This document shows positions 43,378-64,000 of a DNA stretch of 64,000 bases, in pieces (position 1 is the stretch's first letter; every line of letters starts with the position of its first letter). The stretch comes from Candidatus Cloacimonadales bacterium (GTDB lineage Bacteria > Cloacimonadota > Cloacimonadia > Cloacimonadales > JAIOQZ01): NCBI GenBank assembly GCA_963674825.1, contig OY771587.1:2816001-2880000 (forward strand), given 5' to 3'. The position numbers and the translations under genes were made by a program. A model generated the notes under the pieces. It saw only the letters and a list, made by a program, of their open reading frames with translations, was not told where the DNA came from and searched no databases.

Positions 43378-43501
43378 TGATATCGAGTCACATTAATCAT
43401 CTGTGTATGTGATTTTGGGATGATTAATCTGATCGCATAGATAATTGACGTCCGGCGGAATATCTCGTTCCGCCGGAACGTCACAAATACGAGGAGGAAT
43501 T

Positions 43502-45820: not shown

Positions 45821-45836
45821 AACAACTGGAGGAATT

Positions 45837-48800
45837 ATGAAGAAATTATCGATCCTGCTGTTACTACTTACGCTGTCGGCTATCGCGTTTGCCGCACCCA
45901 CAATGGACATTGTGGAGAGTAGCGGAACCATTCAGGTTAGCTGCAGCTACCAGCAGGAATCTGCTGTAAATCATTACACCCAGCAAACCTTCGCAATCCC
46001 CGCTCAGAGCGTGGATGTCGATATCCAGTCGATGCAGATTGGAATCTACGACGAGCAGGGAAACCGGGTGGATGAATATCAGCAGATCCAATCCGAACGT
46101 GTCCAGATCGTGAACCAATTCACGATTCGCGAGATGCGTGGCTTTACCGTTCGTATCGAATCATCCAGAGACGAGAATGGTCTGGAAAGCCGTATTGACA
46201 ACCTGAGCTACACATTGCATCCCAATGGAAGCATTGAACCTGCTCAGACAATCTCGGAAGCATACGAGCCCGTTTATAAGGAAATTGCTCTCAACTACGA
46301 GACATCTTACCTTCGTAGCCTGCCTTATCAGAAACCTTCGATGCTCATCCTCACACACTCCGATTTGCTTACAACAATGGAGCCGTATTTTACCTGGAAG
46401 AAATCACTCGGTTTCGACGTCAATGTCGAGACAATCTCCAATATATCTACTGACGCGAATCAGATCAAATCCTGGATCGCCAACTACTACCACAGCTCGG
46501 AAAATCCTCCGGAGTATCTGATCCTCGTTGGCGATGTAGTTGGACTCTATACAATCCCTTCATTCTATATCAGCTCCGAAAACGACGTGACCGACCTTCC
46601 GTTCACACTCGTTGACGGTGACGACTATTTCCCGGAGATGATCGTGGGACGTATGTCGATCGAAGATACAGAAGACCTCGCAGTCATTCTAAAAAAGACC
46701 TATATGTACGAAAGCGCTCCATACATGGAAGATACCAGCTGGATGAAACGTGCGCTGGTCGTTGCCGGTAACTACGGTGAAGGCACCGTTCCGGTAACTC
46801 CGGTTCTTATGTCCAGATGGCTTGCCGATCAGTTCCGTGGCCACGGCTATACGACGGTCGATACTGTTTATTATCCGCCGACTGCCAATGGTGCTCCTTA
46901 TATCACCAACAGCATCAACGCCGGTGTTCAATTTGCCAGCTATCGTGGATGGGGTGCATCGAATGGATGGCACTATCCTCGTTTCCACACCGATGACCTC
47001 GGTGGACTGACCAATGGCTACATGATGCCTGTCGTAACCTCGGTTGTTTGTGACACAGGCGATTTCGCTCACACTTCCAATGGTAATTCATGCTTTGGTG
47101 AAGCCTGGATGCGTCTCGGAACAAGTCTTCAACCGCAAGGTTGTGTCGCGTTCATGGGTCCGTCCGATCTTCATACAAGCACCGAGAACAACAATGCGGT
47201 TGCTTCAGGATTCTATCATGGTATCCTTGATGAAAACATCCGCTCGTTCGGTTCTGCTGTGCTTCGCGGAAAATGGGAGCTTTACGATAACTATCCGAAC
47301 GATCTCGAGACCGGCGGCGTTGTCGAATTCTATTTCCACGTGTACAACATCCTTTCCGATCCGTCTCTCAGAATGTGGGTCAAGGTTCCGGTCACTCCGA
47401 CTGCAGACCTACCGAGTCAGATCGAGCAGGGTACGAACTACCTCTCGCTTTATCTACCGGACTGGAATGGCGCGATTATCACAGCGACATCCGATGGCGA
47501 AAACTACACTTTCTCACGCGTTTATGACGACTACACGTTCCTCTATATCGACAGCGAAAATGTGGGCAACCTGACCATCACGCTTTCCCGCAAGAACGCT
47601 GTGCCGTACGTCGCAACGATCCCGATCGTCGATTCCGACGATATCGGCGTAACCGATTTCTCGCTGACCAACGTTTATGCTGGCGAGAACGCCAATCTGA
47701 CACTTACCGCAAAGAACTTCAGCGACGCTGAGATTGCAAACGTGACTGCGAGCGTCAGTTCCGATTCACCGTACTTCATCGATAACAGCGATACCTGGGA
47801 CTTCGGCAGCATCGGCTCCGGCTCTGCCGTTACCGCGACTGCTACCTTTGGGATCGCTACCGATTGCCCGTACGGCGAAGTTATCGAACTTGTTGTCGAT
47901 TTCTCTACCGGAGATCAATCGAAGCTGGTTACAAGCGTTGGCGGACTGCTCTTCGACGTTACATCTGTGACACCGGCTGACGATGGCTTCCTCAGCCCGG
48001 GCGAGACGACCAACATCACCATCGAGCTTACCAATGTCAGCACGATGGACGCTTCTGGCGTTACAGCCATGGTTACACCTTCGACCGATGCGGTAACAGT
48101 TAATACAGGCACCGTGACATTCGGCGACATCGCTTCCGGCTCGACCGGTTCCGCGACAATCGAAGTGACTGCCGGCGAAAACGCATATCCCGGACGCGAA
48201 GTTCGCTTCCTGCTTCAATTTGAAGATACTACTGGACGCGAGAACTTCTCCTATGCTTACACAACGATCGGACCAGTCGATCAGACAGCTCCGACCGGAC
48301 CTGATGCTTACGGATATTACGCATACGATAACAACGATACTGGTTACGAAGTAGCCGCACCTACCTACCAGTGGCATACAATCGATCCGAACGATGGCGG
48401 AAACGGTACTGTATTCCTTTGGACCGACGACGCCTCTCATTCTGTCGATCTGCCTTTCGACTTCCGTTTCTACGGACAGGATTTCGATGAGATCACCATC
48501 TGTTCGAACGGCTGGATTTCGATGGGACACACTTGGATGGCTAACTTCCGTAACTGGAATATTCCGGCTGCGCTTGGTCCCAAGAACCTTATCGCCGCCT
48601 ATTGGGATGACCTCAAAGGTTGGGTCAACGACGATACCGGTGATATCTCCAATATGCGTGTTGTGTACTACTACGACTCGGCGAACGATCAGTTCATCGT
48701 GCAGTGGAATGATGCCTACAACCAGCATAACAACACCTCTATCGAGAAGTTCGAAGTTGTGTTGATTCCTCGTGACAATCATGATGGCGACATCATTATC

Positions 48801-49286
48801 AACTATCAGCTGGCAGATAATCCCGATCAGGACGGCAACTACTGTACTGTCGGTATCGAAAGCAACGACCACGAAGCGGGTCTGTGCTACAGCTATGCGA
48901 ATGTATATCCCGCGACAGCGACACCGCTTTCGAACGAACTCTCCATTCTCTTCACAACCGATGCACCGGACGAGTATGTCGCTGTTGGCGATCCTACCGT
49001 CCCGTACAACGAGGTTGTGCTGCACCAGAATCATCCGAATCCGTTCAACCCGGAAACGACCATCGAGTTCTCGCTTCCCGAGAAATCACAAGTGAAGCTC
49101 GAAGTTTACAACATCCGTGGTCAGAAGGTGAAAACGCTGGTCAGCAATCATCTCGAAGCCGGTAACCACAAGGTGACCTGGCAGGGTAAAGATGACAGCA
49201 ATCGTGAAGTTGGTTCCGGCCTGTACCTTTACAAGCTGGCAGTGGCTGAGCACGTAAGCGTCAAGAAGATGCTGCTACTGAAATAA
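45837..49286 (+). CDS. C25 (gingipain-like) peptidase family protein with Ig-like domains and CTD
   Basis: WKKSLG, YLILVGD, DGDDYFPEMIVGRMS, CDTGDF, CFGEAW, YNILSDPSL, TGPDAYGY and C-terminal [17 protein letters not shown]. Confidence 0.88.
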   Translation: MKKLSILLLLLTLSAIAFAAPTMDIVESSGTIQVSCSYQQESAVNHYTQQTFAIPAQSVDVDIQSMQIGIYDEQGNRVDEYQQIQSERVQIVNQFTIREMRGFTVRIESSRDENGLESRIDNLSYTLHPNGSIEPAQTISEAYEPVYKEIALNYETSYLRSLPYQKPSMLILTHSDLLTTMEPYFTWKKSLGFDVNVETISNISTDANQIKSWIANYYHSSENPPEYLILVGDVVGLYTIPSFYISSENDVTDLPFTLVDGDDYFPEMIVGRMSIEDTEDLAVILKKTYMYESAPYMEDTSWMKRALVVAGNYGEGTVPVTPVLMSRWLADQFRGHGYTTVDTVYYPPTANGAPYITNSINAGVQFASYRGWGASNGWHYPRFHTDDLGGLTNGYMMPVVTSVVCDTGDFAHTSNGNSCFGEAWMRLGTSLQPQGCVAFMGPSDLHTSTENNNAVASGFYHGILDENIRSFGSAVLRGKWELYDNYPNDLETGGVVEFYFHVYNILSDPSLRMWVKVPVTPTADLPSQIEQGTNYLSLYLPDWNGAIITATSDGENYTFSRVYDDYTFLYIDSENVGNLTITLSRKNAVPYVATIPIVDSDDIGVTDFSLTNVYAGENANLTLTAKNFSDAEIANVTASVSSDSPYFIDNSDTWDFGSIGSGSAVTATATFGIATDCPYGEVIELVVDFSTGDQSKLVTSVGGLLFDVTSVTPADDGFLSPGETTNITIELTNVSTMDASGVTAMVTPSTDAVTVNTGTVTFGDIASGSTGSATIEVTAGENAYPGREVRFLLQFEDTTGRENFSYAYTTIGPVDQTAPTGPDAYGYYAYDNNDTGYEVAAPTYQWHTIDPNDGGNGTVFLWTDDASHSVDLPFDFRFYGQDFDEITICSNGWISMGHTWMANFRNWNIPAALGPKNLIAAYWDDLKGWVNDDTGDISNMRVVYYYDSANDQFIVQWNDAYNQHNNTSIEKFEVVLIPRDNHDGDIIINYQLADNPDQDGNYCTVGIESNDHEAGLCYSYANVYPATATPLSNELSILFTTDAPDEYVAVGDPTVPYNEVVLHQNHPNPFNPETTIEFSLPEKSQVKLEVYNIRGQKVKTLVSNHLEAGNHKVTWQGKDDSNREVGSGLYLYKLAVAEHVSVKKMLLLK

Positions 49287-52206: not shown

Positions 52207-52581
52207 TCATTCCCCCTTTTGCGTATAAACGGATTCGACCGCGTCGATGAACTCATCCCGCGTGACACCCAGTTGTTTGCCCTTACGAATCGTCTGTTCC
52301 ATTTCGTTTGTACGGAAATCGGCGATCTTCTTCTTCTGAAGCAGCTCTTGCGCTTCCTTCTCGACGAAGAAACCGATTCCTCTCTTTTTGTAGATCACGC
52401 CCTCATTAACCAGTTCACTGAGAGCATTCGATACTGTCTGCGGATTCAGCCTGTATTGCTGTGCCAGCGTCCTGATCGATGGAATCATCTCATCCTCCTT
52501 AACCGATCCCAGGATAATCGCCTTCTCTATCTCCTCCCTGAGCTGAAGATAGATGGGTACGTTATCGTCGAACTTTTTCAT
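52207..52581 (-). CDS. GntR family regulator, YtrA subfamily
   Basis: PIYLQL..PSIR.LA....NPQTV..A..EL...G..RGIGFFV; short length; precedes ABC genes; start at ATG 52581. Confidence 0.92.
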   Translation of the reverse strand: MKKFDDNVPIYLQLREEIEKAIILGSVKEDEMIPSIRTLAQQYRLNPQTVSNALSELVNEGVIYKKRGIGFFVEKEAQELLQKKKIADFRTNEMEQTIRKGKQLGVTRDEFIDAVESVYTQKGE

Positions 52582-52637: not shown

Positions 52638-52686
52638 GATCAATATGCAAATTTTGTTTTTTATTTTTTTGGGAGAGCTTCATGGA

Positions 52687-53038
52687 TGTGCTGTCTCACC
52701 CTTTTTGGCAAAAAGTATCACTTTTCGTGGCAAATTGTATCACGATGCTGGCAAGTCTTGCCACGAGCGTGATACCAGATATCAGCGTGTTTCGCGGTTA
52801 TCTTTATGCAACGACGAGAGGTTAGCGGGAGAGTATCAAGATAATGGCAAATTCTCGCCATTATCCTGAGAACGAATCGGACAGAAAATGGTCTCACATC
52901 CTTTCTAAGCCTGCATTTCGGTCATGTTCTCACTTTCTTGGCAAGCTCTTGCCAAATTCGTGGCATCGTTTTTGGGCTGATTTGAAGCCTAATGATTGCG
53001 GTCACTGCTGTTAAATGTGAGTATCAAGATGATGGCAT
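52687..53038. repeat. Array of GT(A/C)TCA-N6-7-TGGCAA sites, putative transposase-binding end sites
   Basis: Direct copies at 52693, 52715, 52737 (22-bp period), 52833, 52927 and 53021; inverted copies at 52758-75, 52855-72 and a degenerate one at 52949-66. Confidence 0.8.
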
Positions 53039-53045
53039 AAAGAAT

Positions 53046-53069
53046 GGCCTGAATCAGTCGACTCAGGCC
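53046..53069 (-). terminator. Possible terminator of the phage late operon
   Basis: Minus strand GGCCTGAGTC-GACT-GATTCAGGCC followed by ATTCTTT, 17 nt after the last stop codon. Confidence 0.5.
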
Positions 53070-53086
53070 TGCAATATTCGAATATT

Positions 53087-53563
53087 CTACTTATCACCGC
53101 TCCAGACATACAGCTTCCCGCCGTATGCGACGACCTCCCCGATGACGCCCTCTTCAGGTAGCTCCGTGACCTCCGCGATGATGTCGGTGGTCTCGAGCTT
53201 GATATCTCCCTCCAGCGCGTGACCGTTGATCTTGGTGCGGGTCTCAACCTTGGCAGCGAGAGCCGTGGTGAGTCCGGATATCTTGCTCTGCGCCAGCGTC
53301 GGGATGCGGTCAGCGGCGAGGGTGCCGGTAGCGATTTTGGCGGCATCGAGGTCTGGTACTCGATCCACGACGAAGACGCCGGTGGTGATCTTGGAGGCGT
53401 CGAGGTCGGGGATCTGGCTCGCTTCGAGTACGCCCGTGATGTTGCCCGGCTCGATCTGCGGGATTTGCGTTGTGGTCAGCTTGCCTGATTCGTCGAGTTG
53501 CGCGATACCATTGGCGACGCCGAGTTGCCCGGAGTCGAGGATTTCCTGCCATGTGCCAGCCAT
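53087..53563 (-). CDS. Short phage tail-fibre-like repeat protein
   Basis: GVANGIAQLDESGKL motif, about four 18-aa IPDLDASKITTG-type repeats, and INGHALEGDI motif. Confidence 0.65.
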   Translation of the reverse strand: MAGTWQEILDSGQLGVANGIAQLDESGKLTTTQIPQIEPGNITGVLEASQIPDLDASKITTGVFVVDRVPDLDAAKIATGTLAADRIPTLAQSKISGLTTALAAKVETRTKINGHALEGDIKLETTDIIAEVTELPEEGVIGEVVAYGGKLYVWSGDK

Positions 53564-53721
53564 TACGCCTCCTTCGCTTCACGCTCGAGTCGACCGAGCA
53601 GCAGCAATGCGCCTTCGGTCTTGAGCAGCTTTTCGCGGGATTCCTGGATGAGTCTCTGGAGCCGCTCATACTCGTGCGTCAGCTCCAGTTTCGTGGTTTG
53701 GTAGAGTTCAGTTTGCGTCAT
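53563..53721 (-). CDS. 52-aa coiled-coil phage protein (below the ORF-track cutoff)
   Basis: MTQTELYQTTKLELTHEYERLQRLIQESREKLLKTEGALLLLGRLEREAKEA; AAGGAG RBS; ATGA and TAATG overlaps with both neighbours. Confidence 0.75.
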   Translation of the reverse strand: MTQTELYQTTKLELTHEYERLQRLIQESREKLLKTEGALLLLGRLEREAKEA

Positions 53722-53960
53722 TCGTTCTCCTTATATATGTAGGGTTTTCCGTTCTTGATGAACACCTGCCCCGGCTTGGCGTCCGGAGGGAAATCCGTGC
53801 CGCTCAGCACGAGATTCTCGTCGTGAATCCCGAGGTCTTCCTTCTCATCGACCGTCGAGTAAATCGGCTTCACGAAGGCGATATCGCGGTCGGTGGAGAC
53901 CGTCGGTTTGGTCTTGCGGTTCAACAGATCCCAAACGCTGTTCTGGCGAATCGTGTTCAC
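53718..53960 (-). CDS. Hypothetical phage protein
   Basis: Translationally coupled on both sides; C-terminal SGTDFPPDAKPGQVFIK resembles fibre 'knot' motifs. Confidence 0.65.
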   Translation of the reverse strand: MNTIRQNSVWDLLNRKTKPTVSTDRDIAFVKPIYSTVDEKEDLGIHDENLVLSGTDFPPDAKPGQVFIKNGKPYIYKENE

Positions 53961-54817
53961 GTCTGCATCAACTCCGAGACCTTCTGCGCGAGGGTGTTGG
54001 ATGAGTGCAGCACGTTGGCGAGTGCCTGCAGCGCGTCCTCATCCTGCGCGAAGGCGTCGATGATGTTGCCGAGGGTGAGTTGTGTCTCGATGGTCTCGAT
54101 GCGCTCCTCGAGCGGCGAAGTCGTGGTCGCGTAGGTATGGTCGATCTTCTTGATCATCGAGCTGAGACCGCTGTACAGCGTCACCGAGATGTTCAGAACA
54201 TCGCCGTTCTCGACACCGCTCAGTTCGCTTCCATCGATGAACACGTATGTGCTCAGAACCGTCTCGTGATGTACCTCCGAGCCGTCCTTCTCGATGAGGA
54301 TTTCAGCCTGCGTGAAGTGCACCGTCGGCGAGGTGTTGAACAGGATGCGGATGCCGCCGCTTCGGTTGACGACATCGACGCTCAGCGTCACGGAACCGAG
54401 GTCGGGCAGCAGCAGGTCGAGGGTGTTCTCGACCGTATCCAGAGCGGTCTGCAGGGCGTATTCTGAGTGCTCATGCTCAGTGTCCGCCTTGCCGTTCTGC
54501 AGGACGACGAGCGCATCGTTGATATCGTCGATATGGTGACCGATATCGTTATTGTCGGGCAGGATGATGTCCTCGGCCTGATGCGAGTGGTGCAGGCTGG
54601 ATTTTCCTGCCAGCGCGGACTGCACATCCGAGCCGTCCGAGGTGCGTATTTGCTCGGCGTTGTGCTTGTTCGATCCGGTTCCCGTATGGCCGTCGATGCT
54701 TGTCTGATGCGAGTAGAGCAGGGCGTCGATGGTGTCGAAGTTGCCGTTGAGCGCGGCGGCCCAACCGGATTCGCCTGCGACCGGCTTATAGAGGTTGAAG
54801 TTTGTAGTTTCGGGCAT
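53957..54817 (-). CDS. Phage tail fibre/baseplate-attached protein
   Basis: N-terminus TTNFNLYKP....W...LNGNFDTID typical of fibre anchors, HxH motifs; start at ATG 54817 after GGAGG. Confidence 0.6.
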   Translation of the reverse strand: MPETTNFNLYKPVAGESGWAAALNGNFDTIDALLYSHQTSIDGHTGTGSNKHNAEQIRTSDGSDVQSALAGKSSLHHSHQAEDIILPDNNDIGHHIDDINDALVVLQNGKADTEHEHSEYALQTALDTVENTLDLLLPDLGSVTLSVDVVNRSGGIRILFNTSPTVHFTQAEILIEKDGSEVHHETVLSTYVFIDGSELSGVENGDVLNISVTLYSGLSSMIKKIDHTYATTTSPLEERIETIETQLTLGNIIDAFAQDEDALQALANVLHSSNTLAQKVSELMQT

Positions 54818-54825
54818 GCGTCCTC

Positions 54826-55275
54826 CTAAAATCCCCAGCAATCGCCCCAGCCGGCGCCATAGCCGAACACGCTGTCGAAGTCGATGGGCGAAAGCTGCTT
54901 GTAGATGCTTATGAGGGTGAATTTGATGCGGCTTCTATGCGAACGCGCGTCGTCCTCGAGCTTGGGCAGTTTGTCGATGACGACCGGGAACTGCATCGTC
55001 CCCGACCCGGCGTCAAACTCGATGTAGAGCTGGTCTTCGCCGCTCAAGATGGCGTACAGCTCGTCGTACTGCGTCGCCGGCAAATAGGCTTCACACTCGA
55101 TGCTGTCCTCGTTGTATGGCTCGCGGCGGATGAGGATGGTCGGATCGAAGGCGCACTGCTTCTCGACGCGATACTTGCGCTGCGGCTGGTAGTCGATCAC
55201 GCCGCTCTCGACGACGAAACCGGAGTACACGCCGCCTGCGATGGAAATGATGCGAAAGCCGTCGTAGAGCAGCAT
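54826..55275 (-). CDS. Phage tail protein (possibly distal-tail-like)
   Basis: 149-aa ORF starting MLLYDGF, TGATG-coupled to the upstream gene; function inferred from position only. Confidence 0.5.
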   Translation of the reverse strand: MLLYDGFRIISIAGGVYSGFVVESGVIDYQPQRKYRVEKQCAFDPTILIRREPYNEDSIECEAYLPATQYDELYAILSGEDQLYIEFDAGSGTMQFPVVIDKLPKLEDDARSHRSRIKFTLISIYKQLSPIDFDSVFGYGAGWGDCWGF

Positions 55276-56711
55276 CAGACCTCCCACGCCTTGAGCACGT
55301 ACTCGTCCGCCTTGGGGTCGCGCTGCAGCTCGGTGATGCGGTACTGCACGCCCTCGATGAGCAGCTTGTCGAACAGCGACAGGTCGTACTTGGCGAGATT
55401 GTCGATGGTCGCCTCGAGACACCACGTCTGGCAGAAGAGGGTTTCATAGTAGTCCGCGACGAGGGTCTTGAGGTTGGTCGTGTCGCCGACGAGACAGTCC
55501 AGTACCGAAGTGTCGGGCCTTGAACGATTGAGCCGCTTGCGCTTGAACTCGATGATGTCTGCCGATTCGATTGTGGTGACACTGTTGCTGGCGTCGTCCT
55601 TGTTGACCAATCGCAGCGTGCCGCCGGGCTGCGAGATGATGGTCAGATTGTGCAGGAGCAGCGCGGCTTTCAGGGCCTTGAGCTTCTCCAACGGCTCGTT
55701 CTCGCCCTCGTAGAAGCCCTTCGGATACAGGTTTGCAGGGACCGCGTTGCCGGTGTAGGTGACGTACTTGTACTCCGGCGCGGTGGCGTCGTCGAGGTCG
55801 GCGTCCTCTATACCTATAGTATAGGTGTTGCCGTTGTGGTGGAATGTCCGCGCGGAAGCCCACGGCTCGAACGGGACATACTCAGCGCACAGTTCATCGC
55901 GCCACGCGAGCATTTCGGAGTACTGCGTCGTGCTGAAGATTTCCGACTTCTCGTCGATCTCGGCGTCGTCGTCCTCGATCCAGCAGATCGCGTTGTAGAA
56001 GCGGAACTTGCGCGCGTAGACCTTGCACTGGATGTTGCCCTCGTGGACGTGCTCGCAGTAGAACAGCAGGCGGAACTCGGGGACGTAATCGCCGCTGAAC
56101 ATCGGCGCGTAGCGGAAGCCGCAGTAGCACGTCAGCGTGCCATTCCACGCGCGGAACTTGCGCACCATGCGGAGCCAGTCAAGCTGCAGGACTTGCAGGT
56201 CGGTCACAGCGAGCTGGAGCGGCGTGTAGCCGTACCACGAGCACGGAATGGTGACCTCGTTGCCCAGTGCAGACTCGATCCCTTGCGCCAGATAGCGGAA
56301 GCAGTAGTCGGCCGGGTAGCCGCTGTGGAGGGCATAGAGCATGGTCTGGTCATCGAACTTGGCGAACAGCCGCAGATAGTCGTAGCAGGTGAACGCGACC
56401 ACGTCGGTCTTGGCGTTGTGACTCACGAACGAGGTGTCGATGACGCCGTGAAAGACCAGCGTGGAGCCTTCGTAGAGCCGCAGGAGGTAGTGCGAGATAT
56501 AGCGGTCGTACTCGTGCTCGCCGGAGAGAATATTTGCCTCGATCCAGTCGTCTCGAAAGCACTCGAACTCGACCCGGCGCGGCTCCTTGGCGAAGTAGCT
56601 TGTACCGGCGATCTTGTCGGCGTTGAGCCTGATATTGTCCAAGCCGTCAGCGAGGCTCAGCGAGTGTTGCACCGAGTAAGAGAATCGGTCGATAAAATCT
56701 ATTCTCCACAT
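55275..56711 (-). CDS. Phage tail-tip/hub-like protein
   Basis: 478 aa, directly downstream of the tape measure gene; VFHGVID..V.FTCYDYL and DKLLIEGVQYRITEL strands resemble tail-tip proteins. Confidence 0.55.
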   Translation of the reverse strand: MWRIDFIDRFSYSVQHSLSLADGLDNIRLNADKIAGTSYFAKEPRRVEFECFRDDWIEANILSGEHEYDRYISHYLLRLYEGSTLVFHGVIDTSFVSHNAKTDVVAFTCYDYLRLFAKFDDQTMLYALHSGYPADYCFRYLAQGIESALGNEVTIPCSWYGYTPLQLAVTDLQVLQLDWLRMVRKFRAWNGTLTCYCGFRYAPMFSGDYVPEFRLLFYCEHVHEGNIQCKVYARKFRFYNAICWIEDDDAEIDEKSEIFSTTQYSEMLAWRDELCAEYVPFEPWASARTFHHNGNTYTIGIEDADLDDATAPEYKYVTYTGNAVPANLYPKGFYEGENEPLEKLKALKAALLLHNLTIISQPGGTLRLVNKDDASNSVTTIESADIIEFKRKRLNRSRPDTSVLDCLVGDTTNLKTLVADYYETLFCQTWCLEATIDNLAKYDLSLFDKLLIEGVQYRITELQRDPKADEYVLKAWEV

Positions 56712-56734
56712 AACTTACGCCTCTCTCGACCGAT

Positions 56735-56814
56735 TCAGTTTACAGTTAATAGTTAACAGTTGAGGGGGAAAGGGAGCGGCAACTGTAAACTGTTGACTGC
56801 CAACTATTAACTGA
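56735..56814. repeat. Inverted heptamer-repeat hairpin (CAGTTAA type)
   Basis: CAGTTTA CAGTTAA TAGTTAA CAGTTGA - spacer - GCAACTG TAAACTG TTGACTG CCAACTA TTAACTG. Confidence 0.88.
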
Positions 56815-56815
56815 C

Positions 56816-59464
56816 TCATAGGTCGCTCCTAATCAACGTACCTTCTTCAGCCTTCTCGCTTACGATGACGGGGTCGGCCAGCGAGAGCACACCGTTGGCG
56901 GAGATGTGGTTGTGTATGCTCAGTTCCTTATCGCGCAGCTCGCGGCGCAGCAGACGGTTCTCCGATATCAGGTCGTCCACCCGCTCTATCAGTGTGGAGA
57001 GTACGTTACTCGAAGGAACGCTACCGCCTCCAGAGAACGCGAACGACGGCGTCGCGGGAACCGGGATGTCAGGTATCAACACGCTGCCGAGGGTCTTGCG
57101 GACGGCCTCCAGCGGTGCGTAGTTGAGGTAGTGGAAGAACTTCGCTCCCAGCTCTCGCACACGCTGTTTGCGCGTGATGTACTCGTCGCCCTCGGCCTCG
57201 ATGAGGATGCCGCCGCCGGAGTGACTCGGCCCCGTGAGAAGCCCGCCCTGCGCCGCTTCCTGATACTTCTGCTTCGAAATCGTGTGGACGTTGGCTAGGC
57301 CGGCCGCAATCGCCGCTGCGGCGGCTGCAGCCCCCAGCGCGGGGCCAATAACGGGCAGTCCCGCCATCGACTTGAACGCCGCTACAGCCGACGAGTAGGT
57401 GTCGACCATCGCCTGCGCCATGGCCATTGCCTTCCACGCCGCGAAGCCCTTTTTGCCAAAGGCTTGAGCGGCTTTCGCGATATTGCCGAACATGCCGGAA
57501 AAGCCCTGCGCCGCCTTGAATTGGTACTTCTCGCGGATGCGCTGCTTGGCCGCTTCGGCCTGCTCGGTGATCTGCTCCTCGGAAATCCCGGCCTGCAGAA
57601 GCTTTGTTCGTTTGCGGTCGTAGTAAGCGTCGACAGCGGCCAGCTCGCTTTCATAGGACTGCAATGCCAGGTCGTCGCCGCGCGAAAGGAACTCTTCGCG
57701 GATGGCTTCAATCTCCTGCTCGTGTTGCTGCCTGCGAGCGCGTTTCTCTTCGTCCTCGGTCTCCTGTTGGCGTGCCTGCTCTTCGCGTAACCGCTTCTCC
57801 TCATTGGCGTAGTAGGCGCGGATGTTCTGAAGCGTCTCCTCGCCAGCCTGCAGGGACTCGGCGCGCTTCAACTCGGTGTCACGTTCTGCGGCGAGTTGGG
57901 CGATCTTGCGTTCGAGCACGTCCTCGATGGCCAGCAGGGCGTACTGCCGTTGCACCTCCAGTCGCTGGTTTGTCTCCTCCTCGATGGCGTCCGAGAGCTG
58001 CTTTTCGAGCCGCTGCCAGCGTTGATAAGCAGCGAGCTTGTCGTCTACGTTCGCGGCGTCGACCTCACGGATTTCCTCATAGGCGGCCTTGGCCTGCTTG
58101 ATGCGGTAGCGCAGGAGCCGCACGCCCTCGTAGGTCTGTTCGCGCTCAATCCTGAGTTTTCCCGCATGGTACTCCTCGATCGCGCGCATATCGTCGTCGA
58201 AGAGCCGTTTGCGCAGCGCGGTGCGTCGCGCCATTAACTCCCGCTCTTCCTCGAACGCCTGCCACGCTTCGTCCTGCGTCGCGTTGCTCTTGATGGCTTC
58301 ATCATACTTCGCTCTGGCGGCGAGAATGGCGTCGGTGATGGTCTCGAACTCGCTCTTCGCTTGATCGTAGCTGAGTTCATCCACTTCCTTGCGACTCTCG
58401 GACACCAGCTCGCTGAAACTGGTCATCTCCGCAATCAGCTCGTCGAGCTTCTGCCGCGCCTCTTCCGCCTGTCGCTTGTAGCGTTCCAGCGATTCCTCGG
58501 CGTTGCGGGTCTCGGACGCGCTGGAGGCGAACGCGAAACCCGCCGCAGTCGCTCCTGCAGCCAGCAGACTCATAACGCCCACGACGGGATTGATGGCGGC
58601 TTTGAGGGCAATAACGACGGTGGTGAGAACGGTGATGGCAGTGGTGACCGCCCCGATGACGGGTATGGCGACGACCAGTCCGGTCACGAAGCCCTTGACC
58701 GCCGGTGTAAGCTGGTTGTACCACTCGAACAGGCTGCGGATGCCCCTGAGAAGCGGCTCGATGAGCACATTGAGCATGTCGCCGATCTGCTCCTTGATGT
58801 CGCCCCACGCATTCGCGTTCTGCAAGCGCAGGTCAGCCAGTGCCTCCGAGACGCCGCCGTAGTCGCCTGCGAGCTTCTCGACGAGGTAACTCACGCCTTC
58901 CTGCTGGATGCGGCTTTTGTCGAGCTCCACGCCGTACTCGCGCAGGGAGTCCGTGTAACCGTTCACCGCGCGTCCCATGAGCGAAAACGCCGACGAGACG
59001 GTCATGCCGGTGGATGCGTTGGCGTCGGCGAAGTCGAGGATATACGGGGTGATGGCCTGCACCTCGTCGGTGGTCATCTTGAAGGTCTGGCGCATCTTGG
59101 CCATGAGGGGCAATAGCTCCTCGTCGCCGTGGTTTGTCACCGCCTGCATGCGCGACGCAAACTCCTGCATCGATTCCGATTGCTCGCCGAACGCGATGTT
59201 GGTCAGCGTGACCGCCTGCCGCTGTTTCAGCGAAGCGTTGAGCAGGTCGTTCGCCTGATTGACCACGCCATCGATGACCGACTTCAGCGAGGACAGGTTC
59301 AGCATCACGTCGCGGATGACGCCCAGCGCGGCCTGCGCATCGAGCTTCAGCGACTTCGGCTCCTCCGCCTTCTGCTTCAGGTCGTCGACCTGCGCCTCGA
59401 CGTCGGTGACAGCCGCCTTCGCGTCGCCCTTCTCGATGATGATGCGGAACCGAAGCGAGGCCAT
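56816..59464 (-). CDS. Phage tail tape measure protein
   Basis: About 880 aa, Ala-rich and helical with a long coiled coil and hydrophobic stretches; WGDIKEQIG and GGLLTGPSHSGGGILIEAEGDEYI motifs; start at ATG 59464. Confidence 0.88.
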   Translation of the reverse strand: MASLRFRIIIEKGDAKAAVTDVEAQVDDLKQKAEEPKSLKLDAQAALGVIRDVMLNLSSLKSVIDGVVNQANDLLNASLKQRQAVTLTNIAFGEQSESMQEFASRMQAVTNHGDEELLPLMAKMRQTFKMTTDEVQAITPYILDFADANASTGMTVSSAFSLMGRAVNGYTDSLREYGVELDKSRIQQEGVSYLVEKLAGDYGGVSEALADLRLQNANAWGDIKEQIGDMLNVLIEPLLRGIRSLFEWYNQLTPAVKGFVTGLVVAIPVIGAVTTAITVLTTVVIALKAAINPVVGVMSLLAAGATAAGFAFASSASETRNAEESLERYKRQAEEARQKLDELIAEMTSFSELVSESRKEVDELSYDQAKSEFETITDAILAARAKYDEAIKSNATQDEAWQAFEEERELMARRTALRKRLFDDDMRAIEEYHAGKLRIEREQTYEGVRLLRYRIKQAKAAYEEIREVDAANVDDKLAAYQRWQRLEKQLSDAIEEETNQRLEVQRQYALLAIEDVLERKIAQLAAERDTELKRAESLQAGEETLQNIRAYYANEEKRLREEQARQQETEDEEKRARRQQHEQEIEAIREEFLSRGDDLALQSYESELAAVDAYYDRKRTKLLQAGISEEQITEQAEAAKQRIREKYQFKAAQGFSGMFGNIAKAAQAFGKKGFAAWKAMAMAQAMVDTYSSAVAAFKSMAGLPVIGPALGAAAAAAAIAAGLANVHTISKQKYQEAAQGGLLTGPSHSGGGILIEAEGDEYITRKQRVRELGAKFFHYLNYAPLEAVRKTLGSVLIPDIPVPATPSFAFSGGGSVPSSNVLSTLIERVDDLISENRLLRRELRDKELSIHNHISANGVLSLADPVIVSEKAEEGTLIRSDL

Positions 59465-59478
59465 TACATGACCTCGCA

Positions 59479-59585
59479 AATGATGAAGGAGAAATGAGGA
59501 TTGATGAATGGCAAGAGACTGTGCGGTCTCGCGTTACCGTTCATTCCTAATTCATAATTCATAATTCATCATTCATAATTCCGTA
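59479..59585. repeat. Inverted heptamer-repeat hairpin (TTCATAA type)
   Basis: AATGATG AAGGAGA AATGAGG ATTGATG - inner GAGAC/GTCTC stem - TTCCTAA TTCATAA TTCATAA TTCATCA TTCATAA TTCCGTA. Confidence 0.8.
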
Positions 59586-60136
59586 TGAGGATTTCAGAGC
59601 TTTCGCGGTTCGTCCCAGACACCGAGTATCGCGTGTTCACCACGTCGATCGTGAAGCCTTTGTACAGCTCGCGGATGACAGGGTGGTCGTTGTAGCTCAG
59701 GAGCCACTTGCCTTGCACCTCGCGCAGCAGCTTGGCCAGCTCCTCATGCTGGTCGAACGCCGCCACCTTGTCGCGCTCGTAGAGCATCTCACGCTCGTAG
59801 TACGGCGCGTTCGAGGTCGGTGCGCGACTCGCTGTCGAGAAACTCGTGGAACAGCTCTCGCGATGCCAGAAGCCTGTCCAACTCCGCCTTCAGCGCGGCC
59901 GGATGGTGCTTCACGTGCCGCCAGAAGTTCACCAATTCGCCGTTGATGTCGTTGAGGATTTCGCGGTACTTCTGGCCCTTCGACGCCTGCCATTCCTTGT
60001 GGTCGCGCGACTTGGCGAAGAGTATCCACGCCGCGCCGGCAAAGGGCTCGCAGTAGGTGTCGTGCTTGGGGATGAGCGGCAGGATCGCCTTGCGCAGCAG
60101 CCGCTTGCCGCCCACCCATCCGATAACGCTATTCAT
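59569..60136 (-). pseudogene. Dam-like DNA adenine methyltransferase with an internal deletion and frameshift
   Basis: The N-part (WVGGK, EPFAG, NDIN) ends at TDLERA; a different frame resumes at PYYE..WLLSYND..EILIRNY. The middle, including DP of DPPY, is missing. Confidence 0.85.
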
Positions 60137-60890
60137 CTGATACCTCGTAGTTTGCGATGATGACTTCGGCGAACATGCTCTCGCCCTGCATCCGATTGAT
60201 GCCCTTGACCCGGCTGACCGGAATGATGCTGTATCCGGCGTACAACTCGCGCACCTCGGGGCAGTCGTCGTAACTCAGCAGCCAGCGGCCTTTCACACTC
60301 TTGAGCACGTCCCGAAGCCGCTCGTGGTCGAAGTGTCTGGCGTTCGCATACGTCGTTCCGTGGACGTAGGGCGGGTCGCAGTAGAAAAACACGCCGGGCC
60401 GGTCGTAGAATGCGATCAGCTCCTCGTACGGCAGGCGTTCGATGGTCACCTTGTCGAGTCGCTTGCTGAGGGCGTGGACGCGCTCCAGCTTGCGTTGCAT
60501 GCTGCTGGGACCGGACGTGGACGCCCTGCCGAAGTGCTCGCCCTTGCCGCCGAACGAACGGGTGATGATGTAGAGGAATCGCGCGGCGCGTTGCAGCTCG
60601 GTCAGTCCGGGTTGATCGACCAGTTCGTCGAAGAGACTCCTGCTCGCTGGCATCAGCTCCAACTCCTTCACGAGCGCGTCGGGATGGAACTTCACCTGCA
60701 GGAACAGGTTCGTGAGCCGCGCGTCGAGGTCGTTGTACACCTCGAGACGGGCCCAGCGGTCGCGGTGGAAGAGCACCCAACCCGCGCCGCCGAACGGCTC
60801 CACGTAGCCGGTGATGTCGTCCGGCACCAGCGCGCCAATCTTCTTGCGCAGCAGCTTCTTGCCGCCGATCCATGTGATCAGACTATCCAT
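60129..60890 (-). CDS. Dam-like (D12 class) N6-adenine DNA methyltransferase
   Basis: WIGGKK, YVEPFGG, YNDLD, YCDPPY, WLLSYDD and EVIIANY motifs. Confidence 0.92.
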   Translation of the reverse strand: MDSLITWIGGKKLLRKKIGALVPDDITGYVEPFGGAGWVLFHRDRWARLEVYNDLDARLTNLFLQVKFHPDALVKELELMPASRSLFDELVDQPGLTELQRAARFLYIITRSFGGKGEHFGRASTSGPSSMQRKLERVHALSKRLDKVTIERLPYEELIAFYDRPGVFFYCDPPYVHGTTYANARHFDHERLRDVLKSVKGRWLLSYDDCPEVRELYAGYSIIPVSRVKGINRMQGESMFAEVIIANYEVSDE

Positions 60891-61101
60891 GTTGTTTCCT
60901 TGTTGTTTCGATGGCGAGGCAGTAGCGGAGGTAGAGTTCGGGCAGGCTCAACTCGCGGAAGTCGGCCTGCGTGAACCCCGCTCCGCGCAGGGCCATCTCG
61001 AGCCGTTCTATGCTGTCCCCGCTTCGACTTGCGCCGTGTAGCCCAAACCTGCGAGCAAGGGCTGAAACGCGCGCCAACTGCCTCTGACAGCCGAGAAAAA
61101 A
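60883..61101 (-). CDS. Frameshift extension of the tail assembly chaperone (gpGT-like)
   Basis: The -1 frame is open from the T TTT TTC site (61101-61095) to the stop at 60883; ends ..FRELSLPELYLRY.. Confidence 0.7.
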   Translation of the reverse strand, partial: FFLGCQRQLARVSALARRFGLHGASRSGDSIERLEMALRGAGFTQADFRELSLPELYLRYCLAIETTRKQHG

Positions 61102-61331
61102 GCCGTGAACGCCTCCGCCGCCTGCTCGGGGCCGATGTCCTCGGGCTCGCGCTCTGTAAGGATGCGCAGGATGTCGATATCGACCTGCGACTCCTCGAGC
61201 AAGTCCAGGAAGCCGACCTCGCTCAGTTCCAGCACGTTTCCGGCGAGCAGATCGGTCAGCCTGTCGCGCAGGTTTTCATTGCAAAGCAGCGTCGAGAGCA
61301 CCTTGCGGAAGGTCGCGTAGGATATGTCCAT
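61008..61331 (-). CDS. Putative tail assembly chaperone (gpG-like)
   Basis: 107-aa acidic helical ORF between tail tube and tape measure genes, with in-frame GCT TTT TTC slippery site. Confidence 0.7.
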   Translation of the reverse strand: MDISYATFRKVLSTLLCNENLRDRLTDLLAGNVLELSEVGFLDLLEESQVDIDILRILTEREPEDIGPEQAAEAFTAFFSAVRGSWRAFQPLLAGLGYTAQVEAGTA

Positions 61332-61531
61332 TACGCCCCCAGAAAGGTTTTCACGGCGACGCCGATCAGCAGGAAAAACTGGCTGACGGTGAGGCTCGTG
61401 AGCAGCTTCAGGTTGGTTTCCAGACGCGCGATGCGGGTGACCATAGAGCGGCTCGAATCGCCGTTGCCATAGACCTCCTTGTGCACGTCCGAGATCTTCT
61501 TGCGAACTTCAGGATCGCATTTGCATTCCAT
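61331..61531 (-). CDS. Small phage protein with coiled coil and C-terminal TM helix (holin/XhlA-like)
   Basis: YGNG..MVTRIARLE followed by a hydrophobic C-terminus. Confidence 0.55.
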   Translation of the reverse strand: MECKCDPEVRKKISDVHKEVYGNGDSSRSMVTRIARLETNLKLLTSLTVSQFFLLIGVAVKTFLGA

Positions 61532-61539
61532 TGTTTCTC

Positions 61540-62085
61540 CTATTCAGCGGGCACAGGTATCTTGTTTAAGAAGCTGACCTTACCGCTGGTCTTGCCGGTG
61601 AACTCGGTCGTCACCTCTTGCGTGTACAGACCGTCCGCCTCGCCGCTCCAGTCGACCGTCCAGCGGCAGCCGTTGATGAGGACGGCCTGTGTTTTGTCCT
61701 TCGAGACCGCGACCAGCGTGATCTGCGCCATCCCCGCGCTCTGCTCCTCGAGCCAGTTCTTCTTGTCTTCGTTGATGCCCACGATCGTGACGGTCACGAC
61801 GTTGGTTCGCTTGCCCTCGATCTGGTAGTGCCGGGTCTTGAGCTTCTCCGTCTTCGACTCGACCTTGAACGGTTTCTCGGCCAGTTCACCGAGCTCCTCG
61901 AAGTTCGTGCTCAGCTCGGTCTCCATCGACGCCTGACTCGCGAACATCGCGGTGATTTCGCTCTCCGTCAGCTCGCCGACCCCGACGTGGACGTTGTACA
62001 CGTCCACGCCGCCGATCTGGTTGAGCAGGTTCGCGAGGTCGCCGGTGCTCATGCCGGTGGGTAGGGTGGGTTTTTCTACGGGCAT
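61540..62085 (-). CDS. Putative major tail (tube) protein
   Basis: 181 aa, beta-rich, FEELGEL.. motif, upstream of the chaperone; assignment is mainly positional. Confidence 0.55.
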   Translation of the reverse strand: MPVEKPTLPTGMSTGDLANLLNQIGGVDVYNVHVGVGELTESEITAMFASQASMETELSTNFEELGELAEKPFKVESKTEKLKTRHYQIEGKRTNVVTVTIVGINEDKKNWLEEQSAGMAQITLVAVSKDKTQAVLINGCRWTVDWSGEADGLYTQEVTTEFTGKTSGKVSFLNKIPVPAE

Positions 62086-62094
62086 GACCGCTCC

Positions 62095-62295
62095 CTACGC
62101 GCGTTTGACGATGTTGTCGCAGTGCGCGAGGATGAAGCCGACGATGGCTTCCTTGAACTCGCGGAACTTGGCCACGAAGGCGTCGTCGATGGTGTTTTCG
62201 CTACGCTTCGCGAGCGCTTCGAGCGCGCTGATGACGGCGTCCACGATCGGCTCTGCGAGGGCCTTGATCGCCTGTTTGAGTATCCATTTCCACAT
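62095..62295 (-). CDS. Small amphipathic phage protein
   Basis: LEALAKRSENTIDDAFV motif; AAGGAGG RBS. Confidence 0.6.
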   Translation of the reverse strand: MWKWILKQAIKALAEPIVDAVISALEALAKRSENTIDDAFVAKFREFKEAIVGFILAHCDNIVKRA

Positions 62296-62311
62296 AGTGT
62301 CCTCCTTAGGG

Positions 62312-64000
62312 TTAGTCGGTGAGTTGGTAGAATTTGACGAAGCCGGGGACGTAGGTGATGCCGGGCCGGATGCGGATGTACCAGTGGTATTTCCAGTCCG
62401 AGCCGTGGTGCTCGACCTTGAGTTCGGCGTCGGTGCGGTAGCCGATGATGATGAACTTGGTCAGGCCGCAGACGATGTAGTTGTCGGGGAGCAGGCGCGC
62501 CTTTACGGGGATGCCGCTGAAGCTGACCTTGCCGCCCTCGAGCAGCAGCTTGTCGCCCTTGTTGGTCTCGCGCTGGCCCAGCTCGGTGCGGATGCGAATC
62601 AGATCCTTGTGGCTCACGTAGATGCGGAAGGATTCCTGCTCTTCCAGCATCTCGTCCGTGAAGCCAAGCAGCACCTGCTCGAAGCGTTCGGTCCACTCGT
62701 CGTAGGTTGTCGGACTGATGGCGGTGATGTCGGTGCCGTCGGTGGCAAGCTTCACGAGACCGTTGAGGGCCTTCAGCTTGGCGGTGGCGGATGCGCGGTC
62801 ACCCTTGAACATCAGCAGGCGCATGGCCTTCTCGGTCTTGCGCGCGATGTGCTGCTCGACGTAGGCTCCGAAGGCGTCCTCGCCGTATTTGTCCTTGTAG
62901 AACTCGACGACGTCGCGTCCGAGGGTGAACTCGGCCATCAGGATGCCGGTCGGGCAGGACAGGTCAGCGGTCGCCACGTCCTGCGCGGAGAGCGTGCCGT
63001 CCAGCGAGTTATGGAAGATCAGGTCTTCGATGAGACCCACGTCGATTTTTTCGTCCTTGAGCAGCGGGATGACGGAGATGTCGGTGAGGGTGTCGCCGGG
63101 CTTGCTGCCGATGACCTCGTCGATGAACAGGCTCGTGTTGTTGGGCGTCAGGATGCTCATCGCTTTGCCGGAATCGACGTCCGCGATGCCCTTGTAGATC
63201 TCGCGGTGCGCGGCCTTCACCAGCACTTTCTCGCCGTTGACGATCACCTCGCGGTCGCCGCCGTCGGCGTCAGGTTCGCCCTGAATGCTCTTGCTGATGG
63301 CGCGGCTCATCGTGCTCGAAAGGCTGTCGAGGCTCTTCTCGATGGACTTCACGGCCTCGCGCAGACCGCCGTCGTCGATGCCGCTCTCCAGCCTCGAAAC
63401 CTTGCTCTCCAGCTCGTCGATGGCGGACTCAAGCTCCGCTTCGCGGTCGGCGTCCTTGAGCGACTTCTGCAGGTCGCGTAGTCCCGCAATCTCGTCGCGG
63501 ATAGCCTTGAGCGTCTCGTTTGTGCTGTTGTAGTCGTCGGCGCGGCCATAGATCGAGACGCCGTTGAAGTCACCCTTTTCGACCTTTTTCCACAGCGCGG
63601 AGTCGAGGTCGTTGCACTTCAAAACCTGCACCCATGCACCGACGCCGGTGTCGGGAAAGTGCACCTTGTCCTCGGTCTTGAGGATGTAGTTCTCGGCCAC
63701 GGAGAAGTCGTCGATCGGGTGGTTGTTGTGGTTGATGTCGTTGCGACCGACCATGCCGTGCTTGCTGAAGTGGTCGCAGGCTTTCTGGATTTCTTCGGCG
63801 GTGTAGAAATCGCCCTGCGCGTCCTTCACGTCCGGCTCCATCAGGGTCACGAACAGCCGCCCCTGACGCCCCTTCGTCTCGCTCTTGAACTTCACGGACG
63901 AGCCGCGAACCTTGTAGCTCTTGCCGGTGGCGGACTTCACCACGAAGCCCTTCTGGTTGGCGGGATTCATGTCGTCGAAGAGCAGTGAAACGAGCTCCAC
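62312..64000 (-). CDS. Fused prohead protease (XkdF-like), scaffold and major capsid protein; 5' end beyond the window
   Basis: ELVSL..PAN..F, EPDVKDAQGD..EEIQKAC..F..INH..ENY..GAWV..W..V..G.FNGVSIYG protease motifs, a coiled-coil linker, then a capsid-like region (LMFKGD..LKALNGLVK). Confidence 0.75.
   Translation of the reverse strand: MELVSLLFDDMNPANQKGFVVKSATGKSYKVRGSSVKFKSETKGRQGRLFVTLMEPDVKDAQGDFYTAEEIQKACDHFSKHGMVGRNDINHNNHPIDDFSVAENYILKTEDKVHFPDTGVGAWVQVLKCNDLDSALWKKVEKGDFNGVSIYGRADDYNSTNETLKAIRDEIAGLRDLQKSLKDADREAELESAIDELESKVSRLESGIDDGGLREAVKSIEKSLDSLSSTMSRAISKSIQGEPDADGGDREVIVNGEKVLVKAAHREIYKGIADVDSGKAMSILTPNNTSLFIDEVIGSKPGDTLTDISVIPLLKDEKIDVGLIEDLIFHNSLDGTLSAQDVATADLSCPTGILMAEFTLGRDVVEFYKDKYGEDAFGAYVEQHIARKTEKAMRLLMFKGDRASATAKLKALNGLVKLATDGTDITAISPTTYDEWTERFEQVLLGFTDEMLEEQESFRIYVSHKDLIRIRTELGQRETNKGDKLLLEGGKVSFSGIPVKARLLPDNYIVCGLTKFIIIGYRTDAELKVEHHGSDWKYHWYIRIRPGITYVPGFVKFYQLTD

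Follow-up and report, generated by a model that had tools for sequence, protein, structure and literature searches.

We conclude, with a probability of about 90%, that the repeat array at positions 52687..53038 (plus strand) of the window, a 64,000-nucleotide stretch of a Cloacimonadota genome (G000, positions 2816001-2880000), is the tail-side end of a Mu-type transposable prophage with a long, sheathless tail, a cargo bay of approximately 10 kb, and a total length capped near 35 kb. The sequence itself shows inverted ends on both sides, a duplication of 5 bp, a DDE transposase and ATPase that are both intact, a full set of virion genes, and relatives at many different sites. It measures 34,236 bp (G000 2868687-2902922), with the portion at 52687..64000 lying in the window and the far end, at G000 2902922, situated 23 kb beyond it.

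The array consists of copies of GT(A/C)TCA-N6/7-TGGCAA. As the sequence-only reading had described, exact matches start at 52693, 52715, and 52737, 22 bp apart, and are preceded by TGTGC at 52687. Its count of about nine copies was also reproduced: nine were found at a loose threshold, whereas other 380-bp segments of the window hold 0.7 on average and 5 at most. Next to the terminal TG and the three tandem transposase-site-like repeats, the end contains three further direct copies (52833, exact; 52927 and 53021, one mismatch each) and three inverted copies on the minus strand (52775, exact; 52872, two mismatches; 52966, degenerate with three mismatches). The inner direct copies are spaced by 96, 94, and 94 bp, and an inverted partner follows three of them. 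With a 6-base gap and at most one mismatch, five of the six matches in the window fell inside the array (0.47 expected, with six reached in 0 of 100 shuffles); with a 7-base gap, both matches in the window did so, and two were reached in 6 of 100 shuffles. An in-register alignment with the Mu left end had also been proposed. The likeness is modest and suggestive at best, with 14 of 27 bases identical to the Mu left end (NC_000929), as for 1.2% of 20,000 random TG-starting sites, and 11 of 27 identical to the Mu right end, as for 17% of such sites. The window end is the tail side, where Mu has attR, so that its designation as a left end was mistaken, and the alignment, being both weak and at the wrong end, was rejected as evidence.

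The far end, read inwards, begins with TATAAA and continues with the same site in the same register, inverted, and ATGGA adjoins it. This repressor-side (L) end occupies G000 2902515-2902922 and comprises the terminal TA and eight exact inner decamers. ATGGA, which had been predicted as a 5-bp target duplication, is present on both sides of the element, at 52682..52686 (plus strand) and as an identical 5-mer at G000 2902923-2902927. An inverted end finishing in CA had likewise been predicted; the inverted end with the same site was found, whereas its terminus is TA. The hallmark of transposable phages, inverted ends with repeated motifs resembling transposase sites, thus appears to be present, and the canonical TG...CA termini are absent, with TG at the window end and TA at the far end. 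Such termini are usual rather than defining for transposable phages, and excerpts of PMC8705779 describe Leptospira prophages that were accepted with the same exception. The duplication stays at 5 bp, with no sixth base, in the window element and in 11 other retained elements, in a search that asked for a 5-mer and could therefore miss 6-bp members.

The array begins approximately 105 bp upstream of the start of a host GntR-family regulator located outside the element (52207..52581, minus strand; PF00392, with matches in 7/7 family relatives), and the repeats might accordingly be a host regulatory array, such as GntR operators, with the prophage boundary elsewhere. This explanation is extremely improbable. 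The array is absent upstream of the GntR orthologue in four of five relatives (G115, G116, G120, and G121), and the fifth (G117; L305, G117:C17) carries a single TG-starting phage-end scar, of another end type, approximately 100 bp upstream of GntR and near the insertion point in the window. Relatives elsewhere carry this motif at their ends, as does the far end of the window element, and the genomes of those relatives gave 0 control matches. Given the far end with its matching site and the ATGGA duplication, we rejected the host-operator reading. Synteny upstream of GntR breaks in all four genomes of the genus that were compared, the three same-genus relatives each diverging from G000. An integrase with an att core, which the sequence-only reading had named as possible counter-evidence along with a motif array in prophage-free relatives, was not seen either: the Pfam scan of the element revealed no serine integrase, and all three tyrosine integrases located genome-wide in G000 lie outside the element. 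With no integrase inside the element, that alternative was also rejected.

Read from the far end, the gene order is repressor, ner, A, B, GemA-like, DUF3164, TerS, TerL, F-like, cargo, endolysin, neck, portal, capsid fusion, tube, Dam methylases, tape measure, hub, and tail, with the core genes co-oriented apart from the repressor and one small gene. The Ner-like gene and a CI/S24 repressor (G000 2901391-2902514) are followed by a MuA-type transposase of 660 amino acids (G000 2899412-2901394; PHROG 310, PF09299) and, adjoining it in the same orientation, a MuB-type AAA ATPase of 244 amino acids (G000 2898665-2899399; PHROG 296), as had been predicted. Residues D269, D336, and E384 of the transposase align to D269, D336, and E392 of MuA and are invariant in 31 sequences. 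Together with the inverted far end and the ATGGA duplication, this gene pair backs the original proposal that the array is the terminus of a phage mobilised by a DDE transposase, and we infer transposition activity for the element. Next come HTH_17, DUF3164, weak GemA-like, and HTH genes (G000 2896781-2898675), the GemA match (E 0.001) being below the cut-off, and no match to Mor/C was obtained in the element by Pfam scan and Mu protein comparison. The TerS, TerL, and F-like genes (G000 2893911-2896784) are separated from the neck-region genes and M15 endolysin (G000 2881236-2882930) and from the portal (G000 2880049-2881239) by a cargo slot (G000 ~2882982-2893480).

Mu provides the basis for a model of how such an element would move (site binding, nicking, replicative transposition, and repressor-side packaging in excerpts of PMC3562280). 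By analogy, the transposase would bind the repeats, nick at the terminal CA at the window end and at TA at the far end, and join both ends to the target with a 5-bp stagger; the phage would copy itself by replicative transposition, and headful packaging would start at the repressor-side end. The array of inner decamers near the far terminus may act as the enhancer. Its type, compared in nine elements, tracks the N-terminal helix of the transposase and not the repressor or small terminase, which can be 97-98% identical between elements of different array type. A counter-example is a partial element at G000 3775091, which has another array type and a transposase identical to that of the window element.

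All virion genes in the window lie on the minus strand. The head module includes a fusion of an XkdF protease, a coiled coil, and an HK97-fold capsid (578 amino acids; 62312..64000, G000 2878312-2880048, with the first 48 bases outside the window; PF14550, PHROG 3017/1623), for which Foldseek returned P2/P4 and HK97 capsids (E 8e-10 to 1e-7). No phage record among 50,697 covers 80% of this protein. A profile search of 1.84 billion representatives yielded 13 near-full-length clusters with E below 1e-160; the other strong matches were fragments, and the weaker ones were mostly stand-alone proteases, with two distant full-length proteins. The portal is of the PF04860/PBSX type; 3 Rhodococcus phage records were its only matches among the 50,697. 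The terminase family is common to RcapMu, SuMu, D3112-like phages, and fF4 (257 records). The capsid fusion is followed by a tail tube candidate of 181 amino acids (61540..62085), an assignment we regard as a lead, its Atlas neighbour cluster being Phage_TTP_16 (score 0.94) with a recognition value under the tool threshold. Two small conserved genes with no family match (61008..61531) encode proteins of 107 amino acids, putatively a tail chaperone by position, and 66 amino acids. A Dam-type (D12) adenine methylase (60129..60890; PF02086) precedes a second Dam-type methylase (59569..60136) that has been broken by the loss of ~210 bp, as judged from 6 relatives. The tape measure protein (887 amino acids; 56816..59479; PHROG 1538 and others) is followed by a baseplate hub/Tal-fold protein (478 amino acids; 55275..56711), whose AlphaFold model (pLDDT 85.6) matched the T5 tail tip (E 7e-7) and the Mu gp44 hub (E 1e-5) in Foldseek. 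A phage protein of 149 amino acids (54826..55275), distal-tail-like to judge from its position and size, has Atlas neighbours that are mostly viral clusters with no common family. Two conserved tail-region genes with no family match (80 and 294 amino acids; 53718..54841) and a tail-fibre/minor tail-like protein (158 amino acids; 53087..53563; PHROG 1446/7389), the last phage gene, complete the set, and a terminator-like hairpin (53046..53069, minus strand), recognised by consensus match only, lies past this gene.

The head had been judged unlike that of Mu and the tail sheathless, and both judgements held, with the protease-capsid fusion confirmed and no sheath gene found in the genome. PF04984 gave no match in G000, with 3 of 14 genomes positive as a control, and no Mu sheath match was obtained. 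Searches by tblastn with Mu proteins gave no match for the Mu portal, I protease, or T capsid; matches with E <= 0.01 were confined, among the 25 Mu proteins used as queries, to MuA, MuB, and, over a short stretch, gp37. The tail is therefore likely to be long and non-contractile, and the head block seems to have been grafted behind a transposable-phage TerS-TerL-F block. All 7 virion genes tested are full length in the window element, which is probably a dormant, competent prophage.

Assembled contigs of sequencing runs X5, X6 (one sample), and X7 span the window junction with no alternative flank or depth excess, and depth in X5/X6 is flat across it; X1 holds mainly relatives less than 95% alike. 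Contigs drop rare variants, and this result neither supports nor excludes rare transposition. To the right of the second ATGGA, an older repressor-side end of a different type has left two remnants (G000 2902923-2903067 and 2905395-2905457; L004:10923-11067 and 13395-13457), between which lies a gene for a secreted protein of 666 amino acids; an end of this type is a real end in G116. A partial element at G000 3770800-3781750 (L007) has its R end 7 bp from an L end, which is followed by repressor, ner, A, and B; its A and B proteins are 100% identical to those of the window element, and a subtilase cargo gene (1257 amino acids) between R-end fragments adjoins it. Such R-spacer-L junctions were also observed in G115e (5 bp) and in an IMG/VR locus (L251, 7 bp). 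Orphan tail-side ends with the last gene or part of it, at G000 348309 and 3811199 (L009 and L008), show signs of being traces of phage-driven deletions.

Comparison of genomes indicates that the lineage is phylum-wide in Cloacimonadota and occupies many insertion sites. The transposase was found in 80 and the capsid fusion in 37 of 232 genomes of the phylum. Going by record titles, 32 of the 37 rows have hosts named Cloacimonadota/Cloacimonadales; of the other five, four are short contigs from bins assigned to different taxa, and one has no label. In IMG/VR, 142 and 248 related stretches were detected, and the best 80 of each set were fetched. The repressor-side end was placed in 35 of 51 regions on the basis of homology breakpoints and the end motif (33 TA, 2 TG); with two ends found later, both TG, TA occurs in 33 of 37 placed ends. 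In Mu, TA is better tolerated than are changes at the terminal A. Thirteen elements of 30,960-35,495 bp yielded both ends together with a 5-bp duplication (TA/TA, 7; TA/TG, 4; TG/TG, 2), after two duplication matches (G119 and G117a) had been dropped because the presumed ends lacked the site motif. A matching duplication is absent in several elements (G116b, G117a, and G119). Two elements that are 94% identical lie at different sites with different duplications, and G000 itself contains a second element, e2 (990529-1025458; 34,930 bp), with the duplication TCTGA. The 35 L-end flanks are all different and show a MuA-like bias, position 2 being a pyrimidine in 27 flanks and position 4 a purine in 24, the target preference of MuA being CYSRG (excerpts of PMC5977238).

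Several loci of the family have unusual arrangements. In 5 of the 24 tail-side ends that were inspected, a copy of the end's own terminal 7-49 bp follows immediately (L044, L073, L076, L093, and L054; G115b, G116a, G116b, G120, and G119), the site at G000 3770844/3770866 belongs with these cases, and the G120 element, bordered by a clean duplication, is embedded in the terminal site of an end of its own type. This pattern looks like insertion into old ends despite Mu-type immunity, with terminal duplication and assembly error as alternatives. In G206 (L089-L090), a distant relative with a 45% capsid fusion, head genes lie upstream of A-B and TerL precedes TerS, which reflects either a different gene order or two adjacent elements. 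The tail-side parts in G115a and G115c (L042 and L045) are broken by the same insertion sequence, which is IS3-like by inspection.

The cargo slot of the window element is 10.5 kb in length, low in GC, and encodes two FlgD/Por-tail secreted proteins, the Schlafen-group-3 helicase PDC-S41, an SpbK-like protein, and a methylase fragment. The slot lies between F and the lysis/neck block and was measurable in 71 elements. Sixty slots exceed 3 kb, corresponding to 48 non-redundant slots and 44 unrelated groups (<30% cover shared). In the main clade (42 slots), the median is 9.8 kb, including a lysis gene of ~0.5 kb, and the slot takes up almost a third of the genome; 172 of 202 slot ORFs of at least 200 amino acids are on the opposite strand. 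PADLOC was applied to 88 proteins from 25 genome-derived slots, with the exclusion of duplicates, lysis genes, antisense frames, 13 boundary-crossing ORFs, and all IMG/VR slots. Matches were obtained in 16 of the 25 scanned slots (RM types I, II, IIG, and III, Gabija, BREX, PD-Lambda-5, PDC-M18, PDC-M68, PDC-S41, and SpbK-like), with PDC-S41 and the SpbK-like protein coming from the window element, and no defence match was obtained by PADLOC in the other 9. Other slots hold FlgD/Por-tail secreted proteins, an RND pump cluster, insertion sequences, or unknown genes. In G066b and G006 (L079-L080 and L083-L084), the slot holds a TetR-RND efflux-FabH cluster and no defence genes. Three large host genes at 40390-49286 of the window (995, 791, and 1149 amino acids) have, by inspection, FlgD/Por-type C-terminal tails, a protein class frequent among the phage cargo. 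With a phage core of ~22-25 kb, the spare capacity at the seam between the TerS-TerL-F block and the PBSX-HK97-type head would form a bay of ~10 kb for foreign genes. Cargo capture would probably proceed by illegitimate recombination, because no att-like motif common to the cargo junctions was seen by eye in those inspected, and cargo would then be swapped between relatives through the flanking phage homology. Against a uniform bay, 11 of the 71 slots are under 3 kb, and some subclades with empty slots instead have extra genes elsewhere, together with unplaced ends.

Slot length was inversely related to the length of the rest of the element in 11 complete elements (Pearson r = -0.80, Spearman -0.66), v253 having been dropped as a near-copy of v254 and G120 left out. 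The standard deviation of total length was 0.77 kb, compared with 1.66 kb on permutation (p = 0.003 with n = 11, which overstates significance given that kin are not independent). Total length would be capped near 35 kb by head size, and large gains would then bring deletions; we consider head size the most likely cause. Excerpts of PMC8705779 offer a different cause for length, a transposition step such as end pairing or a chromosomal domain of set size, which we regard as rather unlikely here. Such a step would explain why the virion-less G120 element (30,960 bp; without terminase, head, tail-core genes, and repressor, and with Avs4 among its cargo), the capsid-less G103b element (33,044 bp; also without tube and tape measure), and e2 (34,930 bp; most of terminase, capsid, and tape measure lost, each swapped for low-GC genes) are all near unit length. 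It would also accommodate the size matching of 10 core-replacing events, in which inserted and lost segments have a length ratio of 0.62-1.22 (r 0.92 between log lengths), and which seemingly imply a lower bound as well; one event sharing a junction with another and the 22-kb replacement in G117a (ratio ~0.75) were excluded from this set. However, the midpoint of the elements falls within unrelated cargo, so that a conserved central gyrase-type site is not possible there; pure insertions in the core are all <= ~750 bp, as a head cap predicts, with pure deletions <= ~900 bp; and G117a has only 29.1 kb between its end motifs. We prefer head size as the cause.

Virion-defective copies bear on whether the family is still a phage. 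Ten of 42 long elements lack large parts of at least two essential virion genes, and 8 more have one partial match, as would be expected if the family now consisted mainly of domesticated cargo transposons that stay within a host lineage and hop within the genome, virion transfer being rare or extinct. The G103b and G107 elements are also only as similar to each other (81%) as the rpoB region of their hosts (81.5%), so that a recent horizontal spread of this capsid-less element is not supported, and the contigs at the window junction gave no sign of activity. We nevertheless think general domestication doubtful, given that 24 of the 42 elements carry all 7 tested virion genes at full length and that dN/dS for virion genes in G004a/G004b is 0.035-0.19, indicative of purifying selection. 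The truncated portal common to G103b and G107 has a dN/dS of 0.09 at a dS of 0.84, which is better explained by exchange with working phages than by decay. These two elements come from two genera, have unrelated flanks, and agree in their portal truncation and replacement cassette at 81% identity (G103a/G103b/G107 loci L047-L050 and L091-L092). In both e2 (L006:11728-14577) and G115b (L044:10412-13252), the tape measure gene gives way from residue 158 onwards to one and the same two-gene cassette for secreted proteins, with 75% identity and different right junctions.

A more specific possibility, which we put forward tentatively and consider somewhat less likely than not, is that this phylum-wide family acts as a cargo vehicle of fixed size. 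Intact helpers would keep an interchangeable 10-kb bay with room for BREX and type I/III RM, and derived copies would trade capsid, tail, or terminase genes for cargo of about equal size, retain the ends and transposase, remain at 31-35 kb, and spread in helper virions; TA termini would be used, and old family ends would be favoured for insertion in spite of target immunity of the Mu type. The data on helper packaging are indirect, comprising lengths, intact ends, the A and B genes, and dN/dS. If this reading is correct, the copies would be natural, full-length mini-Mu satellites that distribute defence systems and secreted enzymes within Cloacimonadota. The replacements of matching size and the full-length copies without virion genes render the choice between head size and a transposition step testable, and the natural occurrence of TA, TG, and mixed ends within a single transposase family supplies substrates for the question of terminal dinucleotides. 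In this understudied phylum of engineered and wastewater systems, the lineage represents a candidate phage family that searches with Mu portal and Mor markers would probably miss. Its slot, of which 60 examples form 44 groups with many genes outside known families and which is three times as large as the P2/P4 hotspots, is a ground for the discovery of defence systems, and as a native transposon the element might be developed into a genetic tool for this phylum.

The element behaves like Mu and, on the evidence of its genes and ends, belongs to the transposable phages, but it is neither a Muvirus, given that it has no sheath and no Mu portal, I protease, or T capsid, nor of the B3 type. With Mu (NC_000929) it shares the repressor-ner-A-B order at one end, the DDE triad, the MuB-type ATPase, the F gene, and the hub fold, as well as a 5-bp duplication, several transposase sites per end, and unlike spacing at the two ends (excerpts of PMC3562280). 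It differs from Mu in its CI/S24-type repressor, a PBSX-type portal after lysis and neck genes, the protease-capsid fusion, the lack of a sheath, TA at the repressor-side end, the 10-kb cargo slot, and a length of 34 kb. Transposable siphoviruses (the D3112 group, RcapMu, and B3) share transposition, a non-contractile tail, and the terminase family, whereas D3112-group genomes start with TGT and end with ACA (excerpts of PMC5977238) and the present element has a TA far end. In the passages of the literature that were consulted, we found no transposable phages of Cloacimonadota and no cargo slot in Mu-like phages, and those of PMC10121019 contain nothing on Mu-like phages; a 2023 ISME J survey of transposable phages could already list the lineage. 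TA ends, known from Leptospira, and prophage defence hotspots, known from P2 and P4, are not new in themselves; we found no report of the combination. The Leptospira TA-TA prophages share TA termini, a conserved length, and structural and transposition modules of different histories, but differ in a duplication of 6 bp, a transposase of the B3/Tn552 type, a genome organised like that of B3, and the presence of a sheath (excerpts of PMC8705779), whereas the Cloacimonadota family has a 5-bp duplication, a Mu-like order, and TA/TA, TA/TG, or TG/TG ends; unlike the B3/Tn552 type, the element has neither a 6-bp duplication nor a divergent two-arm organisation. The family length of 31.0-35.5 kb is slightly under the ~36-39 kb given for transposable phages in excerpts of PMC8705779, and fF4 is 32 kb. 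The Hankyphage/Ca. Mubacviridae and Flavobacterium fF4 are likewise MuA/MuB phages outside Proteobacteria, and excerpts of the sources on them mention no cargo slot (PMC12135933, 10.64898/2026.05.11.724261). Flavobacterium fF4 shares the terminase family but has separate protease and capsid genes and another gene order, and no DGR gene was noted among the scanned genes of the window element. The slot most closely recalls the defence hotspots of P2 and P4, which are also fixed variable loci between conserved phage genes, carry anti-phage systems, and are bounded by capsid size (excerpts of PMC9122126). Those hotspots average 3.2 and 2.6 kb, respectively, without BREX and type I RM in the same excerpts, whereas the Cloacimonadota slot has a median of 9.8 kb, contains type I and III RM, BREX, Gabija, large secreted proteins, and an RND pump, and resides in a transposable phage.
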